A stretch of DNA of 52,270 bases from Candidatus Hermodarchaeota archaeon (GTDB lineage: Archaea; Asgardarchaeota; Lokiarchaeia; Sigyniarchaeales; SOKP01), in the NCBI GenBank assembly GCA_048885525.1, contig JBHLLP010000025.1, positions 1 through 52,270 of the forward strand. Direction: 5' to 3'. The notes under the pieces were generated by a model, which worked only from the letters and a program-made list of their open reading frames with translations, ran no database searches and was not told the origin of the DNA. The position numbers and the translations under genes were made by a program. Shown in pieces: positions 38,256 to 45,628 of the stretch (positions within the stretch are counted from its first letter, which is position 1; every line of letters starts with the position of its first letter).

Positions 38256-39428
38256 ATGACTATGAGTATAAAATTAAAAGCTATTACAGATCCTCCTAGT
38301 AGTGAAGAATTATCAAATCGTTTAAAACAAGTTAGAATTTTAATGGAGGAACAAGATTTGGATTATTATGTTTCATTTAATCCTGTGAATATATACTATT
38401 TAACAAATTTCGCCTTCTATGTCCATGAACGACCTTTTATTCTTATAATTGAAAAAGAAGGAGTACCAAAAATGTTAATTCCTAGATTAGAGAAAGGACA
38501 TTTTGAGTCGAGAGCACGCTGTGAAATTGAGTTTGTTATATATTATGAGTTTCCCGCCCAAACTGGCGAAAATTGGTATGATTATTACCAAAAGGAAATT
38601 CGTTCAAATGCAAAGGTTGGGATAGAATCTGAATTACCAATAGGGATTGCTAAAAAAACTCCTGGAGAGATTGTTATTGCAGATATAATTGATGATGTTC
38701 GAATTAATAAAACCAATTATGAACTAGGGCGAATTTATCATGCGTGTCGAGTAGTAAATAAGGGTCATAAAGTATTGCTTAAGAAATGTCGTCCTGGAGT
38801 ACTTGAATTTTCATTATATAAAGAGATTACTGATGCTATGACTTCCAAAATAGTGCAAGATATACCAAATGCTAACTTTAGAGCAACATAGACTACTGGA
38901 GCGGTTTGGCCTCCAATTATTTCTCATGATCCTCATTTAATACCTCACATATTTGCCCCTATGGAAGAGGGGGGACCTCATGTTTCGATAGTCTCTGCTC
39001 AGGTAGACGGATATGGTGTTGAGATTGAACGAACATTTTTCTTAGGTTATGTACCAGAGAAGGCTAGAAGACCCTTTGAAGTAATGTTCGAAGCAAGAAC
39101 TCTCGCATATAGTATGTTAAAACCGGGAACAATCATGAGTGAAGTAGACAAAAAAGTAAGGGATTTTATAACAGAGAAAGGATATGGTGATTATATAATC
39201 CACCGTACTGGGCATGGTCTTGGAATTACTGGACACGAAGCTCCATTCTTAGCTGAGGGATATGATAGACTAATAGAAAAAAATATGGTAATTAGTGTCG
39301 AGCCAGGCATTTATATACCAGGCTTAGGCGGTTTTCGTCATTCAGATACAGTGTTAATCACAGAATTGGGATATCAAAAATTAACTAAAGCTCCAGAAAC
39401 AATTGAAGAACTTACAATCCCGATTTAA
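38256..39428 (+). pseudogene. M24 (Xaa-Pro peptidase/creatinase-like) hydrolase interrupted by one in-frame TAG
   Basis: Both track ORFs share a frame: ...ANFRAT*TTGAVWPP...; HRTGHGLG, HEAP, SVEPG and RHSDT intact. Confidence 0.8.
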
Positions 39429-40154: not shown

Positions 40155-41420
40155 TTAAATATCCTGATTGAAATAGTCAGAATCCAAATTTGGATATATT
40201 TTCTTCTTTCTTCCTTCCTTTTCTAATCTAATAAGGTCTAGCTCTTTTAGTTTATTTAAATGATATTGAATCGTTTTATGATCTACTTTAAATTTTTTAG
40301 TAATTAAGTTATTCCATATTCCAGGTCTATCTTCAATCATTTCTAAAATCTCTAAGGTTAATTTACTCTTTTGCAATTTTAAATCCACATTTGAAATTGG
40401 ATTCTTTTGATAATATGGAAAATAAGCGATAAAATTGCCTATCCTCTTTTTTCCTATAATTTTATAAGTCTGAAGAATATCAAGATGCCAGACTAAATTT
40501 CCTGCTGCAAGCCCTGTCTTACGTAATAATTCATTGAAATGTATTCCGGGTTCAGTTAGAATTAATTCTATAATTTTATTTCTATTTTCATTTTCTAAAA
40601 CTTCATCTAATGATAATCGATGAGCACCTTTCTCAATTGGAACAGTTCTTGTCTTTAGATACTGAAAATAATCCTTTTTTGAAATTAAAATTACTAAAGA
40701 AGCAATTCCAATTACAATTACAACAATAGTAATCACTAACCAAGACCAATCCGTCTGTATAATGCCAACTTCAATAAGTGTAATATAATAGTCAGTTTCT
40801 TGCTGAAGGTTTGAAATGTTACTTTCTAAGTATTTTTCAGAACTTGCTTCATCGAGAAATTCAATCGTATTAACTAGTTCCCACGAATCTACACTAGATT
40901 CGAATATGGCTAATGAATATGTTTTATCTGGATCAATATTGTAAAGCTGATTTTTTTTATAACTAATAGTTAAATTGGAAATTGATGTATTCGATCTTAA
41001 CCTAATAATACAGTTATATCCAAATTTAAATTGATAATTAGCTCTCTTAGGTTGTTGTGGAGCTTGATCTATTCCAAAATTCTGTAATTCTGATTTTGAT
41101 GAGATATTTAATGAAATTGGAGCGCTATTATTTATTATAAAATAAGTTTGGCGGAAAGAAATACCGTTTTCATACTCAATATAAAGATGAATGTATGTAT
41201 CTGTAGAAACTTCAAATGTGTTGTTATTCATAAACTCATATGATACTCTTTCTTTTGGTTTAATGGAATCTTCAGTCCATAGACCATCGATTTTTTTTTT
41301 TGTTGCATTAACATCGATGGAAAATAAACTATACTCAAGGAGAAATATTAATAAAATTAGTATAACAACGTAGAAATACCTATTTCTTTTTCCTAATCCT
41401 ATGGTATCCAAAAAAATCAT
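40155..41420 (-). CDS. Membrane-tethered transcription regulator: signal/TM, ectodomain, TM, tandem wHTH
   Basis: C-terminal ENENRNKI...PGIHFNEL...LVWHLDIL and ILEMI...PGI...IQYHLNKLKELDLI. Confidence 0.85.
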   Translation of the reverse strand: MIFLDTIGLGKRNRYFYVVILILLIFLLEYSLFSIDVNATKKKIDGLWTEDSIKPKERVSYEFMNNNTFEVSTDTYIHLYIEYENGISFRQTYFIINNSAPISLNISSKSELQNFGIDQAPQQPKRANYQFKFGYNCIIRLRSNTSISNLTISYKKNQLYNIDPDKTYSLAIFESSVDSWELVNTIEFLDEASSEKYLESNISNLQQETDYYITLIEVGIIQTDWSWLVITIVVIVIGIASLVILISKKDYFQYLKTRTVPIEKGAHRLSLDEVLENENRNKIIELILTEPGIHFNELLRKTGLAAGNLVWHLDILQTYKIIGKKRIGNFIAYFPYYQKNPISNVDLKLQKSKLTLEILEMIEDRPGIWNNLITKKFKVDHKTIQYHLNKLKELDLIRLEKEGRKKKIYPNLDSDYFNQDI

Positions 41421-41475: not shown

Positions 41476-42180
41476 TTACTTTCTCTTTCTATATACCACT
41501 AAGACAATAGCTATCGCTACTACTCCTATGAAAACAGCTCCAATACCAGCAAAACCCCAAATTGCGACATCAGATTCAGGTACAAGAATCGTCCACTCAG
41601 AGAAGTGGTTAGTTTCGGCAACTAAATATCCTCCTTGTAATTGGGTTGGTACAGCTTCCCATTGTCCTGCAGTTCCATTATAAAAAGCCCATGTTCCTTC
41701 GCGGTTTCTATTAGTTGCTTGCATCTTAAGTTTGGCTTGAACTTTTTCTTGCGCTGAAAAATTTGTTTGAATCTGTATACAAATTCCTTCTTGATATGAT
41801 AAATTGCGATTACGATTTCTTACCTGATGTCTACTTCCGAGTAATAATCCCAATTCTTTCTGTTCTTGTGTACATGTCATATTCATTTCAAGGTCATGCT
41901 CTGCTTCAACTTCAATCTCAAAATGTTTATCTCCAATCTTAGGAGCTTCACTACAATTGATAGCTCCTTGAACTGATATATTTGCCTGAACTGTCAACCT
42001 CGTTTTCATTTGAAATCGCCATGTTAAACTGTGATTTGCTTGTACCTCATATTGATATAACCCGGTATTAGGAACCTCAATCGGAGCCTGTGGAGTAGCT
42101 AATACTGTATTAACATTGAACAATGTGAATAGAAAAGTGAAAGCAAAAATTCCAACTAGTATTTTACTAAAGTTTTCCAT
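41476..42180 (-). CDS. Surface protein with signal peptide, beta-rich ectodomain, HFS motif and C-terminal TM anchor
   Basis: W...W..V...YLVAETNHFSEWTIL followed by TM and YRKRK. Confidence 0.85.
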   Translation of the reverse strand: MENFSKILVGIFAFTFLFTLFNVNTVLATPQAPIEVPNTGLYQYEVQANHSLTWRFQMKTRLTVQANISVQGAINCSEAPKIGDKHFEIEVEAEHDLEMNMTCTQEQKELGLLLGSRHQVRNRNRNLSYQEGICIQIQTNFSAQEKVQAKLKMQATNRNREGTWAFYNGTAGQWEAVPTQLQGGYLVAETNHFSEWTILVPESDVAIWGFAGIGAVFIGVVAIAIVLVVYRKRK

Positions 42181-42226: not shown

Positions 42227-42255
42227 TATAAAAAGCGTTGAGGAATAATTATTCC
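42227..42255 (-). promoter_or_regulatory. TATA box plus adjacent perfect 14-bp palindrome GGAATAATTATTCC
   Basis: Minus-strand TTTTTATA at 42227-42234; palindrome at 42242-42255; AGGTGT SD before ATG 42180. Confidence 0.6.
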
Positions 42256-42494
42256 CAATAAAAATAATTTGATGTAGCGGAATTGCCTTGAAGTTGTAGA
42301 CAATTATGTAATACAAGACAAAAACTTCTTTAGAATTCGATTAACCTTAATAAAATAAAATTCCTTAAACCTTAAATTTAAATTTTGGAATTTTATAAAT
42401 ATTATTAAACATTTTCAGATTAAAATAATAATAAGGAATTCATCTTAAATTTAGTTTAATTTGAATTCAAATTCATATTAATGGAGAAAAACTT

Positions 42495-44750
42495 ATGTCG
42501 TTAAAAGATTTCACTAAAGAGGTATTCACGCGGTATGGCTTTACCGAGGAACATATTAATATTTATTTGGTCTATTTAAGAGTGCCTCGTGCAACTACTT
42601 CTGAAGTTTACATGACTTTAGTGGATGAACATGAAGATTTACAGTATGAAACTGTATTAGAAATTACTAATTGGTTAGTTGAGAAAGGTTTTCTTAAGAG
42701 AGTTGAAGGGATTATAGATAGATATATCCCACTTCAACCATTTTTCGAATTATTTACCAGCGAATCAGAGAATTTTAGAACTGAAATTGCTAAAATTAAA
42801 GATACTATATTAGCTGATCAATCTGATCGATTTGAGAAACTTGAAGCGATTCAAGATAAAAGTATAGGAGAGGTACAAAACGCTGTTGATACTCAAATTA
42901 AAGCTTTTTTTGAGGATTCTGATTCGAAAAATAATACAAAAAAAAATCGGATAGAGAGTGCTACAATACGTTTTAAAGAAACAACCAAGGCATTAGAAGG
43001 CAATATCCATTCAATAATGGACAAATTAAATTCAAGTCTAAATAATATTTCGGAAACAATTGTTGGAAAAAATGAGGCTGAAATTAACAAAACAAAAGAT
43101 GATCTTACATCATTGATTTCAAAATTATTACTTGATTTTTCAACTAGAGTTGAAAATTTAGAAAAAGAATTAAAGATGGAGTTAGATGAACACGTTGAGA
43201 GGCATAAAAATGTAGCAAACCAACTTAAACCGAAAATGGAACAAATTCTAGAGAAATACTTGGAACGAATGGATAAAGTAATTGCGGATTTAAAAGCAAA
43301 AATTTCCAATTTGTTAAAAGAACACACTAATCATGTTAAAAACACCACAGATACGCTCCAAACTAGTTTAAAAGCTATTGTTGATGACAGACATAGAACC
43401 TTAACCAATCAGACAAATGAATTTAAGAGTATGACTTTAACCTTAATAGATAATTTACTTGAACATGCAAATAGATTTACTGACTTTAGCGAGGATATGG
43501 CTAAAAAAGGATTTTTCTGGATGGGTAAAAAGAAAAAATACAAAGCTCGACATAAAACCACAATTGAAAATGTTTTAAAATTTACTGAACCCATGAAACC
43601 CGATTTCATAAAAACTTGTGATGATTATATAGTGGATACACGAGGAACTACAGATCAAATTAAATCAGATGTAACAGATATTATGGTAAAAGAACATGAC
43701 GGATTAGCCACAGAAACTAATGATCTTGACTTTAAAGCTCAAGAGACAGTAGATGCACAATTGGAAACTTTAGCGACGGATCTAGCTGGAGAAGTTGATG
43801 ATACATTACAAAGTGGTGTAAAAGATTGTTCTGATACGAGAATAAAACTTAAAGATTCCTTAGAAAACTCACTTAAAACACATCATAGACAATATGATGA
43901 TGCAATAAACACTCATAAAGAATATTCGTTAAAACATTATACTGATTATGATCTTGAAACTAAAAGGATAAACGCAGATTGGACGAGAGATGTGGATATA
44001 AATTTCGATAATGGTAAAAGAGATTGTTCAGATAAAATAGATAGTGAAATTAAATTATGGGATGCCGAAGCGAAAGATATGAATACAAACTTAACAGATA
44101 TGCTCTCGGATCATAAATCTAAATATGAACAAAATGCTAAAACTCTCCAAAATAGTTTATCAAATACCACAAGAGATACCATCCAAAACGTAAAAGATGC
44201 AATTGCAGACTTTACGCTACAGTTTATGAATTCTATTGATGATTCTACTGAACTCGCTGAAAATAATGAAGGCAAATTAAATGATATTTCTAATGCCTCA
44301 AGTTCAATTCCAGAAATATCTAAGGTTACAACTTGGCCAGTGGTTGGTAAAGATGCTATGATTGCTGCAATTAAAGATGCAGTATATCGAGTAAAATCTT
44401 CAATTATAATTGTGACTCCATACGTAGTTCCCGATATCCTACAAGTTGTTTCAGAATACGCATTTCAGAAGAAAGCTGCTCGTTTCATGCTCACAAGTCA
44501 TTGGGACTTACAGCAGTACAGCGGAATTATAGGAAAAATGAAGCAGCTTGGTAATATACAATTTAGACAACTTCAAACCGCAGGAGAATTTTTCGCAGTT
44601 ACTCGAGATGCTGAGGAAGTAATTCTTGCTCCCGCTACAACTAAAGAAGCAGACATGATTGCTGTTGTTTCGAACCAAGAAGGATATTCTCGACTTTATA
44701 GTCAATTTATTGGTCCGATATTCCAAGCGAATTCTCGCCCAATAAAGTGA
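42495..44750 (+). CDS. TrmB-like regulator/chromatin protein with a ~520-aa helical insertion
   Basis: N-terminal wHTH (GFTEEHINIYL...LVEKGFL...YIPLQP); C-terminal TrmB effector/PLD-like fold (W.VVG...SSIIIVTP...RDAEEVILAP). Confidence 0.75.
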   Translation: MSLKDFTKEVFTRYGFTEEHINIYLVYLRVPRATTSEVYMTLVDEHEDLQYETVLEITNWLVEKGFLKRVEGIIDRYIPLQPFFELFTSESENFRTEIAKIKDTILADQSDRFEKLEAIQDKSIGEVQNAVDTQIKAFFEDSDSKNNTKKNRIESATIRFKETTKALEGNIHSIMDKLNSSLNNISETIVGKNEAEINKTKDDLTSLISKLLLDFSTRVENLEKELKMELDEHVERHKNVANQLKPKMEQILEKYLERMDKVIADLKAKISNLLKEHTNHVKNTTDTLQTSLKAIVDDRHRTLTNQTNEFKSMTLTLIDNLLEHANRFTDFSEDMAKKGFFWMGKKKKYKARHKTTIENVLKFTEPMKPDFIKTCDDYIVDTRGTTDQIKSDVTDIMVKEHDGLATETNDLDFKAQETVDAQLETLATDLAGEVDDTLQSGVKDCSDTRIKLKDSLENSLKTHHRQYDDAINTHKEYSLKHYTDYDLETKRINADWTRDVDINFDNGKRDCSDKIDSEIKLWDAEAKDMNTNLTDMLSDHKSKYEQNAKTLQNSLSNTTRDTIQNVKDAIADFTLQFMNSIDDSTELAENNEGKLNDISNASSSIPEISKVTTWPVVGKDAMIAAIKDAVYRVKSSIIIVTPYVVPDILQVVSEYAFQKKAARFMLTSHWDLQQYSGIIGKMKQLGNIQFRQLQTAGEFFAVTRDAEEVILAPATTKEADMIAVVSNQEGYSRLYSQFIGPIFQANSRPIK

Positions 44751-44772: not shown

Positions 44773-44838
44773 TTTACCGAGAGTGGTAAAATACCAATTA
44801 AAATAATCAAAAATTTTGTTATTTATTTTTATTTTTTT
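44773..44838 (+). terminator. Hairpin TTTACC-gagagt-GGTAAA followed by a T-rich tract
   Basis: 6-bp stem 22 nt after the stop; T-runs at 44813-44838. Confidence 0.4.
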
Positions 44839-45013
44839 ATTAGAATTTCTTTCTTAAAATATTATATTATAAAAGAAAGTCTTTAAGATCTTTGCAGATG
44901 TCTGCCTTTATTTCATTTTGAAGCTTCTTTGAAGACTATAACAAGTAAGAAATTTATTTATATTATTGAAATATAACATAACTCAAGAATACCAATTAAA
45001 TAATCTTTTTATA

Positions 45014-45628
45014 ATGTATAAATTCAAAGTGATTGTAGCCGGAGACAAAAATGTAGGTAAAAGTTCATTGATAACAAGATTCTGTGACAACGTATTCTAT
45101 GAGGATTTGAAGGAGACGATTGGTGTTGGTTTTAAAAGGAAAAAGGTAGTTATTAAAGAAGATTCCACGGAAATTGCTCTAGAATTAAATATCTGGGATT
45201 TTGCAGGAGAAGAAAAATATCGTAAGTTGTTCCCTGCTTATGCATATGGTGCCTCAGCCGCATTATTCCTATTTGATATTACTAATATAAAATCTTTATA
45301 TGATATAGATAATTGGATAAAAGTTGTGGAAGAAAATGCATCTAACGATGTTGTAAAAATAAATATTGCAACAAAGATTGACTTAAAAGATGAAAGAGAA
45401 GTATCTAAAGAAGAAGCGATAGAATTCTTTGAAAAATATACCCCAGGTAAAAAAATTATTGAAACCTCTTCAAAAACTGGTGAAAATGTAGAAAAAGCAT
45501 TTATCTACGTTGCTAAGGAATTAATCGATAAAAGTCTTCAAAAATGTAAAGCTTGTGGTGTATTTTTTAGTAAAAAATTAAATTATTGTCAATATTGTGG
45601 GGAAAGAATAGAATCAGAAAGAATATAA
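45014..45628 (+). CDS. Rab-like small GTPase with C-terminal zinc ribbon
   Basis: G1 GDKNVGKSS, G2 TIGV, G3 WDFAGEE, G4 TKID, G5 TSSKTG; CKACG...CQYCG; ATG at 45014 preferred over the track TTG at 44966. Confidence 0.92.
   Translation: MYKFKVIVAGDKNVGKSSLITRFCDNVFYEDLKETIGVGFKRKKVVIKEDSTEIALELNIWDFAGEEKYRKLFPAYAYGASAALFLFDITNIKSLYDIDNWIKVVEENASNDVVKINIATKIDLKDEREVSKEEAIEFFEKYTPGKKIIETSSKTGENVEKAFIYVAKELIDKSLQKCKACGVFFSKKLNYCQYCGERIESERI

Follow-up and report, generated by a model that had tools for sequence, protein, structure and literature searches.

The 52,270 nucleotides of Candidatus Hermodarchaeota archaeon analysed here (contig JBHLLP010000025.1 of GenBank assembly GCA_048885525.1, positions 1 to 52,270; hereafter the window; G+C content ~30%) contain a gene for a 751-residue protein, which we refer to as the rod protein. 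It combines an N-terminal winged helix-turn-helix (wHTH) domain and a C-terminal phospholipase D (PLD)-like domain, both of the kind found in the archaeal proteins TrmB and TrmBL2, with an extremely long helical rod between them. A sequence-only reading of the window had proposed that this protein tethers the chromosome to the membrane. Its description as a TrmBL2-derived, fold-back hendecad rod of fixed length with a conserved basic-aromatic apex is a more secure statement than the tether. A published description of this protein family was not found in the literature. The gene and the parts of its product are located as follows.

42495..44750, forward strand: rod-protein gene, 751 residues, stop codon at 44748-44750 (from the list of open reading frames and the translation)
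42495..42743, forward strand: TrmB-type wHTH head, residues 1-83, with the recognition helix at residues 51-63 and the wing at residues 67-79 (AlphaFold2 secondary structure)
42744..43508, forward strand: arm 1, one continuous helix of 255 residues in hendecad register, residues 84-338 (AlphaFold2)
43503..43544, forward strand: conserved basic-aromatic motif KKGFFWMGKKKKYK, residues 337-350, at the middle of the rod
43530..44303, forward strand: arm 2, one continuous helix of 258 residues, residues 346-603 (AlphaFold2)
44328..44747, forward strand: PLD-like alpha/beta domain of the TrmB/TrmBL2 type, without HKD motif, residues 612-751

Both ends of the rod protein are homologous to TrmB and TrmBL2. 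The Pfam family TrmB (PF01978) matches the rod protein itself weakly (residues 13-82, E 0.019, 15.3 bits with a cut-off of 25.6), and its cut-off is passed by the distant relatives P0155, P0171, and P0150. When a profile of 21 N-termini of the family was compared with the sequences in the PDB, TrmB (3qph, E 5.8e-10) and TrmBL2 (5bpd, E 1.8e-9) were the top matches. The alignment spans residues 1-93 and places the start of arm 1 (P82-F-F-E-L-F) at the start of the linker helix of TrmB. For the C-terminal domain, neither a sequence search with the whole protein nor a profile of the domain gave a significant match in the PDB, and it was the fold search alone that identified it. An AlphaFold2 model of the C-terminal 149 residues (residues 603-751) reached a predicted local distance difference test (pLDDT) score of 95.5, and its top match in Foldseek was 2f5t, the sugar-binding domain of TrmB (E 4.8e-10), followed in this order by chains of TrmBL2 (~1e-8), full-length TrmB, and members of the PLD superfamily (Nuc, Zucchini, FAM83, and F13). 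VIA-align superposed the domain on residues 110-242 of 2f5t, which constitute the PLD-like first subdomain of the TrmB effector domain, with a Z score of 18.3 and a root mean square deviation (rmsd) of 1.8 Å over 131 residues. The rod protein stops at residue 751, right after the PLD-like subdomain, and has no counterpart of the sugar-binding barrel subdomain of TrmB, which TrmBL2 likewise lacks (PMC4158304).

The PLD-like domain does not have the catalytic HKD motif (HxKxxxxD), and no conserved His or Lys is found at the motif position among 40 diverse copies of the domain. Conserved across these copies are N687, R704, D705, and E708, together with the motifs GN(I/V)xxR and RDxEE. The domain is also found stand-alone (140-230 residues) and fused to TPR proteins in Asgard metagenome proteins; in P0145, P0146, P0173, P0189, and P0196, it is joined to TPR arrays, some with zinc ribbons or helix-hairpin-helix domains. 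Since the same four residues are kept in the stand-alone and TPR-fused copies, a conserved binding site at the position of the former PLD active site is suggested. The genome from which the window derives encodes four further copies of the domain, L007 (C7:68216-68599), L008 (C10:40338-40745), L009 (C5:54352-54771), and L010 (C7:105791-106192), in proteins of 270, 650, 735, and 669 residues, respectively. These proteins have other architectures, with the domain located mid-protein in three of them, and only the 650-residue protein has a clear TrmB wHTH.

A full-length AlphaFold2 model, built on an alignment of 30 sequences, had a mean pLDDT of 78. It consists, between the terminal domains, of the two uninterrupted helices listed above, and the sole break in the rod comprises residues 339-345 (43509-43529), where the pLDDT drops below 50. 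The helical stretch of residues 84-603 has its midpoint at 343.5, within this break. Hydrophobic residues recur along the rod with a period of 3.65-3.67 residues (11/3), the coherent power of which is very high across all 520 residues, and a period of 3.63-3.68 was found in all family members tested. When the sequence is written in rows of 11, hydrophobic residues occupy positions 1, 5, and 9, plus positions 2 and 6 in some rows, and from residue 97 to 335 this register is maintained without a single stutter. Thus, judged by its periodicity, the rod is a hendecad and not a heptad coiled coil, and it is expected to be nearly straight. Each arm would measure ~38 nm at 0.15 nm per residue. A hydrophobic membrane segment is not present in the rod protein.

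That the two arms pair in antiparallel orientation is well supported by the way in which the rod varies in length. In relatives at 37-55% identity, rods of 524, 612, 626, 648, 736, and 824 residues are found, and in five relatives the number of extra residues, relative to the rod protein, is the same in arm 1 and arm 2 (44/44, 62/62, 106/106, 51/51, and 150/150); the multiple alignment and independent pairwise alignments agree on these matched insertions. The increments per arm correspond to 11n (44) or 11n+7 (51, 62, 106, and 150). They are inserted at approximately residues 163-171 in arm 1 and residues 502-512 in arm 2, positions that are roughly mirrored about the tip (e.g., 171 and 512 give a centre of 341.5). 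Moreover, the conserved motif ends 0-1 residues before the arithmetic midpoint of the rod, whether the latter consists of 520, 524, 612, 626, 648, 736, or 824 residues. An antiparallel pair requires such equal growth of its arms; equal insertions are the hallmark of the length classes of the cytoplasmic hairpin of chemoreceptors, the methyl-accepting chemotaxis proteins (MCP).

Some further features of the arms relate to these insertions. Weak internal repeats with offsets of 44 and 62 residues are present in arm 1 (residues 208-330), and a weak 66-residue repeat is found in arm 2 (residues 399-541), where [KR]DCSD[TK] occurs at residues 443-448 and 509-514. As the offsets of 44 and 62 residues equal the sizes of insertion modules in the relatives, it is suggested that the rod has grown by duplication of multi-hendecad blocks. 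The segment DSDSKNNTKKN in arm 1 (residues 141-151) is a run of 11 residues without any hydrophobic one; it overlaps residues 145-165, the window that ranks second in positive charge within the protein (+5), and is located close to the arm 1 insertion site of the relatives. In arm 2, a polar gap at residues 505-514 coincides with their other insertion site.

Antiparallel pairing can be realized within one chain, by a turn at the tip, or between two chains, and the former option appears the most likely. The geometry of the AlphaFold2 model was read through structural matches and not from coordinates. The antifreeze hairpin 4ke2 aligns over 196 residues, at an rmsd of 3.4 Å, to residues 242-438 of the model, and the chemoreceptor hairpin 2ch7 aligns over 308 residues to residues 180-501, in both cases across the break. 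Proteins consisting of a wHTH plus a helix cover residues 2-600 of the model, which places the head beside the end of arm 2. A Foldseek search with the whole model was dominated by the C-terminal domain and provided no information on the rod. A turn is favored because Gly339 and Gly344 are conserved (in 117 and 118 of 118 homologues, respectively), because relatives tolerate a 4-residue indel at the break, and because the confidence of AlphaFold2 is low exactly there. When the break was located by the density of Gly and Pro, a noisy measure, five distant relatives had it at 0.47-0.49 of the rod length, and many further ones at other positions.

The alternative is an extended, domain-swapped antiparallel homodimer, in which each chain forms one helix of ~520 residues and its arm 1 pairs with arm 2 of the other chain. 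The resulting rod would be ~76 nm long. Each of its ends would carry a mixed head, to which one chain contributes the wHTH and the other the PLD-like domain, and the FFWM cluster of the tip motif would be buried at the dyad. Such a rod would connect two sites on DNA or protein that are far apart. As the contacts between the arms are the same as in the hairpin, the matched insertions and the midpoint position of the motif are predicted equally well, and burial at the dyad would account for the conserved hydrophobic residues without invoking a membrane. There is also a precedent in the family: the linker helices of two TrmB monomers pair antiparallel, with Phe81 and Phe84 of one opposite Ile91' and Leu88' of the other, and the dimer has been described as domain-swapped (PMC4158304). 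However, the two conserved glycines, the low model confidence, and the tolerated indel speak against a continuous helix through the tip, and the collar of lysines around FFWM, which gives the tip a net charge of +8, would be doubled and crowded at the dyad. In addition, the known long fold-back rods, i.e., those of SMC, Rad50, and the chemoreceptors, fold back within one chain. As to whether the hairpins dimerize, a complex prediction with two copies of residues 200-485 returned no answer (score 0.29, mark 0.42). The swapped dimer is a serious competitor of the one-chain hairpin, and we consider it rather unlikely.

Whichever way the arms are connected, the length and the tip of the rod are under strong conservation. 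Among the 120 best homologues (72-100% identity), 118 have a length of exactly 751 residues, which points to a structural constraint on length. These 118 were compared gap-free. Mean column entropy was 0.29 for residues 325-360, as compared with 0.59 in the wHTH, 0.65 and 0.70 in the two arms, and 0.51 in the C-terminal domain; hence, the tip region has the lowest entropy of the regions of the protein, with the most conserved single 15-residue window at residues 317-331, just N-terminal of the tip. The motif KKGFFWMGKKKKYK is nearly invariant in this set. In relatives, it takes the form [KR][KR]G..[FW]KAL[FL].GKHK, and the motif KRGSAWKALFLGKHK of relatives resembles a short amphipathic helix between two glycines. 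Overall, the rod protein is 73% identical to its counterpart in one related genome, as compared with 65 and 80% for a neighboring nitroreductase and Fae-HPS, respectively. At E <= 1e-10, matches were found in 153 of 301 sampled genomes of the phylum and in 62 of 68 genomes of the same taxonomic family, mostly one per genome. The named homologues all belong to Promethearchaeota, Lokiarchaeota, or other Asgard lineages, in line with the origin of the window from an Asgard archaeon of the Lokiarchaeial group, and include representatives of the Loki, Thor, Heimdall, Hod, Jord, Atabey, Baldr, and Sigyn groups. Among named matches, therefore, the rod family is seen in Asgard archaea only.

Up to this point, the sequence-only reading has held well. 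It had recognized the wHTH and the effector/PLD-like domain with ~520 residues of helix between them, and a single strong break at the arithmetic midpoint, it had inferred antiparallel arms of ~35-40 nm, and it had called for a check of the hairpin topology with AlphaFold and of the conservation of the midpoint motif among homologues. The profile search, Foldseek, VIA-align, and the AlphaFold2 model all bear this out. Also its remark that the protein is not an SMC protein, for want of Walker motifs, proved correct: no ATPase family was matched in Pfam or NCBIfam, and the Walker A pattern GxxxxGK[ST] is not found in the sequence.

The distribution of charge sets the tip apart from the rest of the molecule. 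The whole protein has a net charge of -27, to which the wHTH contributes -5, arm 1 -9, the tip +8, arm 2 -24 (residues 354-603), and the C-terminal domain +3. The most positive 21-residue window is that of residues 335-355 (+9), and the same holds in several relatives. FFWM with its lysine collar also constitutes the best interfacial-hydrophobicity window of the protein. Being both the most positive segment and the top interfacial window, the apex would be the one obvious site for contact with an anionic surface, membrane or nucleic acid. Since such a surface would repel the acidic body, an end-on orientation would be favored. A P-loop was considered for GFFWMGKK, which fits GxxxxGK, and was rejected; K occupies the place of the S/T that should follow, and relatives do not retain the pattern.

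From these properties, we infer the following model, which covers the choice of the hairpin over the swapped dimer, the docking of the apex, the ligand of the head, and the role as a spacer. The short linker helix of a TrmB-type ancestor may have expanded into two length-matched hendecad helices of ~255 residues each, which would pair in antiparallel orientation to yield a straight rod of ~38 nm, with a one-chain hairpin as the most likely arrangement. The winged helix and the PLD-like domain would thereby be brought together as a head at one end of the rod, with the Gly-flanked aromatic cluster and its lysine collar at the opposite end. With a body that is acidic throughout and a strongly basic charge at the apex only, the rod should stand end-on on an anionic surface, for which the inner face of the membrane is the most likely candidate, ahead of nucleic acid. 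Whatever is bound by the head, be it DNA or another protein, would be held at a fixed distance from that surface. The rod protein would be a structural protein derived from TrmBL2 and not a sugar-sensing regulator. We give this complete model, with the one-chain hairpin and the docking of its apex as a spacer, about an even chance.

Several points weigh against this model. An AlphaFold2 run on a monomer can only fold back or stay extended, and the hairpin in the model is, therefore, uninformative with respect to the swapped dimer. The mirror symmetry of conservation reaches a local peak at centre 341 (r 0.50), and the unrelated centre 285 gives r 0.66, with a spread over centres of 0.34. The top rank of the tip in interfacial hydrophobicity holds for the scale values used. 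A strongly aromatic-basic tip is not seen in distant members of the Heimdall, Jord, Hod, and Atabey groups, where the midpoint break usually has one or two residues that are hydrophobic and two or three that are basic, which do not stand out. Such a tip occurs only in the Lokiarchaeial subfamily and in relatives nearer to it, and any role at the membrane may thus be particular to this subfamily. Finally, the gene looks monocistronic and has no conserved functional partner, so that its context offers no functional hint.

The recognition helix of the head (YETVLEITNW) is acidic, and so it is in the consensus of the family. This bears on the chromosome-membrane tether of the sequence-only reading, in which the winged helix contacts chromosomal DNA in the manner of TrmBL2 and the membrane takes up the apex, so that the DNA is held ~38 nm away from it. 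The head is homologous to TrmBL2, which is a chromatin protein (PMC4158304), no other segment of the rod protein is as basic or as interfacially hydrophobic as the apex, and the arms are antiparallel, as the hairpin needs, with the AlphaFold2 model folding back. However, Tyr50 and Asp51 are listed as DNA-binding residues of the TrmB family, and Tyr50 was reported to be key (Table 1 of the review PMC4158304). In the profile alignment of the N-termini, they are replaced by Leu55 and Glu56 in the rod protein, and the net charge of -5 of its wHTH falls within a family range of -12 to +1. Binding of DNA by the head is, therefore, doubtful. Basic residues are still present in the wing and at the N-terminus of the head, and MreA binds DNA without an equivalent Tyr (PMC4158304), so that the loss of this residue lowers the likelihood of DNA binding without being decisive. 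Lipid binding by the apex is predicted from the chemistry of the sequence. Hence, the antiparallel rod of the tether proposal stands, the chromosome end is not supported, and the tether as a whole appears improbable, slightly more so than the swapped dimer.

Related to the tether is the broader notion of a molecular ruler of Asgard archaea, with a fixed length of ~38 nm, which would be anchored by its apex in the cell membrane and hold, with its TrmBL2-derived head, chromatin or a protein complex at a set distance beneath the membrane. We consider this a speculative proposal, somewhat less probable again than the tether. If true, the lineage closest to eukaryotes would possess, in the rod protein, a prokaryotic equivalent of the tethers that link membrane and chromatin in eukaryotic cells.

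The possibility that the rod protein is an ordinary one-component transcription regulator, with the hairpin as a sensory or signal-transmitting module like that of chemoreceptors, directs attention to the surroundings of the gene, in which the following features were recognized.

40155-41420, reverse strand: 421-residue HTH_HVO_0163 protein, upstream of and divergent from the rod-protein gene
41476-42180, reverse strand: 234-residue protein without Pfam family, forming a pair with the previous gene
42483..42486, forward strand: GGAG, a putative Shine-Dalgarno-like site, 8 nt 5' of the ATG (read from the sequence)
44832..44838, forward strand: run of seven Ts within a T-rich tract, a putative archaeal terminator, ~85 nt 3' of the stop codon (read from the sequence)
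44966-45628, forward strand: Ras-family small GTPase (Pfam Ras, E 3e-40), directly 3' of the rod-protein gene

As a regulator, the protein would control the divergent upstream pair. Its TrmB ancestry and a 14-bp palindrome, GGAATAATTATTCC, at 42242-42255 in the intergenic region shared with this pair are consistent with such a role, as is the fact that the pair adjoins the rod-protein gene also in the close relatives L003-L005. However, the pair is not retained next to the gene in L001, a relative at 45% identity, and the absence of the recognition Tyr, the acidic recognition helix, the lack of the sugar-binding barrel subdomain, and the structural constraint evident from the fixed length all speak against a regulator, which we regard as very unlikely. 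Even less probable is a coat on lipid surfaces, in which the 11-residue amphipathic repeats would cover a membrane or lipid body lengthwise, in the way of apolipoproteins, perilipins, and alpha-synuclein: it would fit the 11/3 periodicity throughout the rod and a weak match to the Pfam family Apolipoprotein A1/A4/E (PF01442; E 2e-7), but this match scores 31.2 bits as compared with a cut-off of 90, the hydrophobic seam is narrow, the arms are strongly acidic, and there would be no need for insertions of exactly the same size if each helix bound lipid on its own.

The genes on either side are unrelated to the rod protein. The seven-T run suggests that the rod-protein gene is transcribed as a putative single-gene unit. 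Downstream of it, besides the small GTPase, a gene for a U32 peptidase is located. A functional tie to the Ras-like GTPase was considered and rejected, because this neighbor is not conserved; in relatives, the GTPase and U32 genes are not kept, and a gene for an SBBP-repeat protein or for Fae-HPS is found 3' of the rod-protein gene instead. A wider synteny, including the genes for an M24 peptidase, a nitroreductase, and Fae-HPS, is retained in relatives. In the window, the Xaa-Pro/M24 peptidase gene (38256-39428, forward strand) is interrupted by one in-frame TAG at 38889-38891. The remainder of the gene is in frame, with 63% identity to an intact homologue of 388 residues that has a Glu at the position of the TAG. 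A single change of GAG to TAG would thus explain the stop, which may be a nonsense mutation or an assembly error; no sign of recoding was seen at this codon.

No known prokaryotes are more closely related to eukaryotes than Asgard archaea, and the internal organization of their cells is little known. A protein that is single-copy, nearly universal in the taxonomic family of its genome, conserved like core enzymes, fixed in length to the residue, and varied in equal steps per arm would fit a molecular ruler or strut. If its apex binds the membrane and its head binds chromatin or a complex, the rod would set a defined spacing inside the cells. Independent of that, the rod protein is a clear case of a transcription-factor scaffold that turned into a structural protein, and its long natural hendecad coiled coil would be useful for studies on straight coiled coils.

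Comparison with known systems shows both common and distinct features of the rod protein. Its closest relatives in terms of domains are TrmBL2 of the Thermococcales (5bpd, 5box, 5bpi, and 5bqt) and TrmB (3qph and 2f5t), which have the N-terminal winged helix and the C-terminal PLD-like subdomain in the same order. Like TrmBL2 and unlike TrmB, the rod protein has no sugar-binding barrel subdomain. However, where TrmB and TrmBL2 have one short amphipathic linker helix, the rod protein has ~520 residues of hendecad helix in two matched arms; it comprises 751 residues instead of the 264 of TrmBL2, and it differs from TrmB further in its acidic recognition helix with Leu instead of Tyr50.

Weak matches of the rod to ZorA of the Zorya defense system (PADLOC ZorA, E 1.7e-9, restricted to the tail in the models; NCBIfam ZorA, E 4e-5, 22 bits with a cut-off of 190) do not identify the protein, since only the tail is matched and a MotA/ExbB membrane domain is lacking. 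Like the apolipoprotein match, they were rejected as similarity in repeat character: they remain far below the curated cut-offs where these exist and are restricted to the repetitive rod.

The cytoplasmic hairpin of chemoreceptors, e.g., 2ch7, resembles the rod protein as a long antiparallel helical hairpin with equal insertions in its arms. It is built, however, of heptads instead of hendecads and has a kinase-docking tip instead of an aromatic-basic one; the rod protein has no transmembrane part, and an MCP signaling domain was not matched in Pfam. Basic-hydrophobic motifs that target proteins to membranes are known from the C-terminal amphipathic helices of MinD and FtsA and from the effector domain of MARCKS, and DNA-membrane tethers are exemplified by Noc. 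The tip motif shares with the former the aromatic or hydrophobic cluster flanked by lysines, but it is internal, at the apex of the hairpin, and not terminal, and there is no homology to any of these proteins. The rod protein also resembles SMC and Rad50, in which a long coiled coil of antiparallel arms brings the two halves of a head together and ends in a specialized apex, the hinge of SMC or the hook of Rad50; the cohesin arm 7ogt aligns loosely to the model. These proteins have an ABC-type ATPase head with Walker A and B motifs and a zinc hook or hinge, whereas the rod protein has neither and its head is derived from TrmB. The antiparallel fold-back that joins the N- and C-terminal parts of the head is nevertheless common to them and the rod protein, in which it would most likely be a hairpin and, less likely, part of a swapped dimer.

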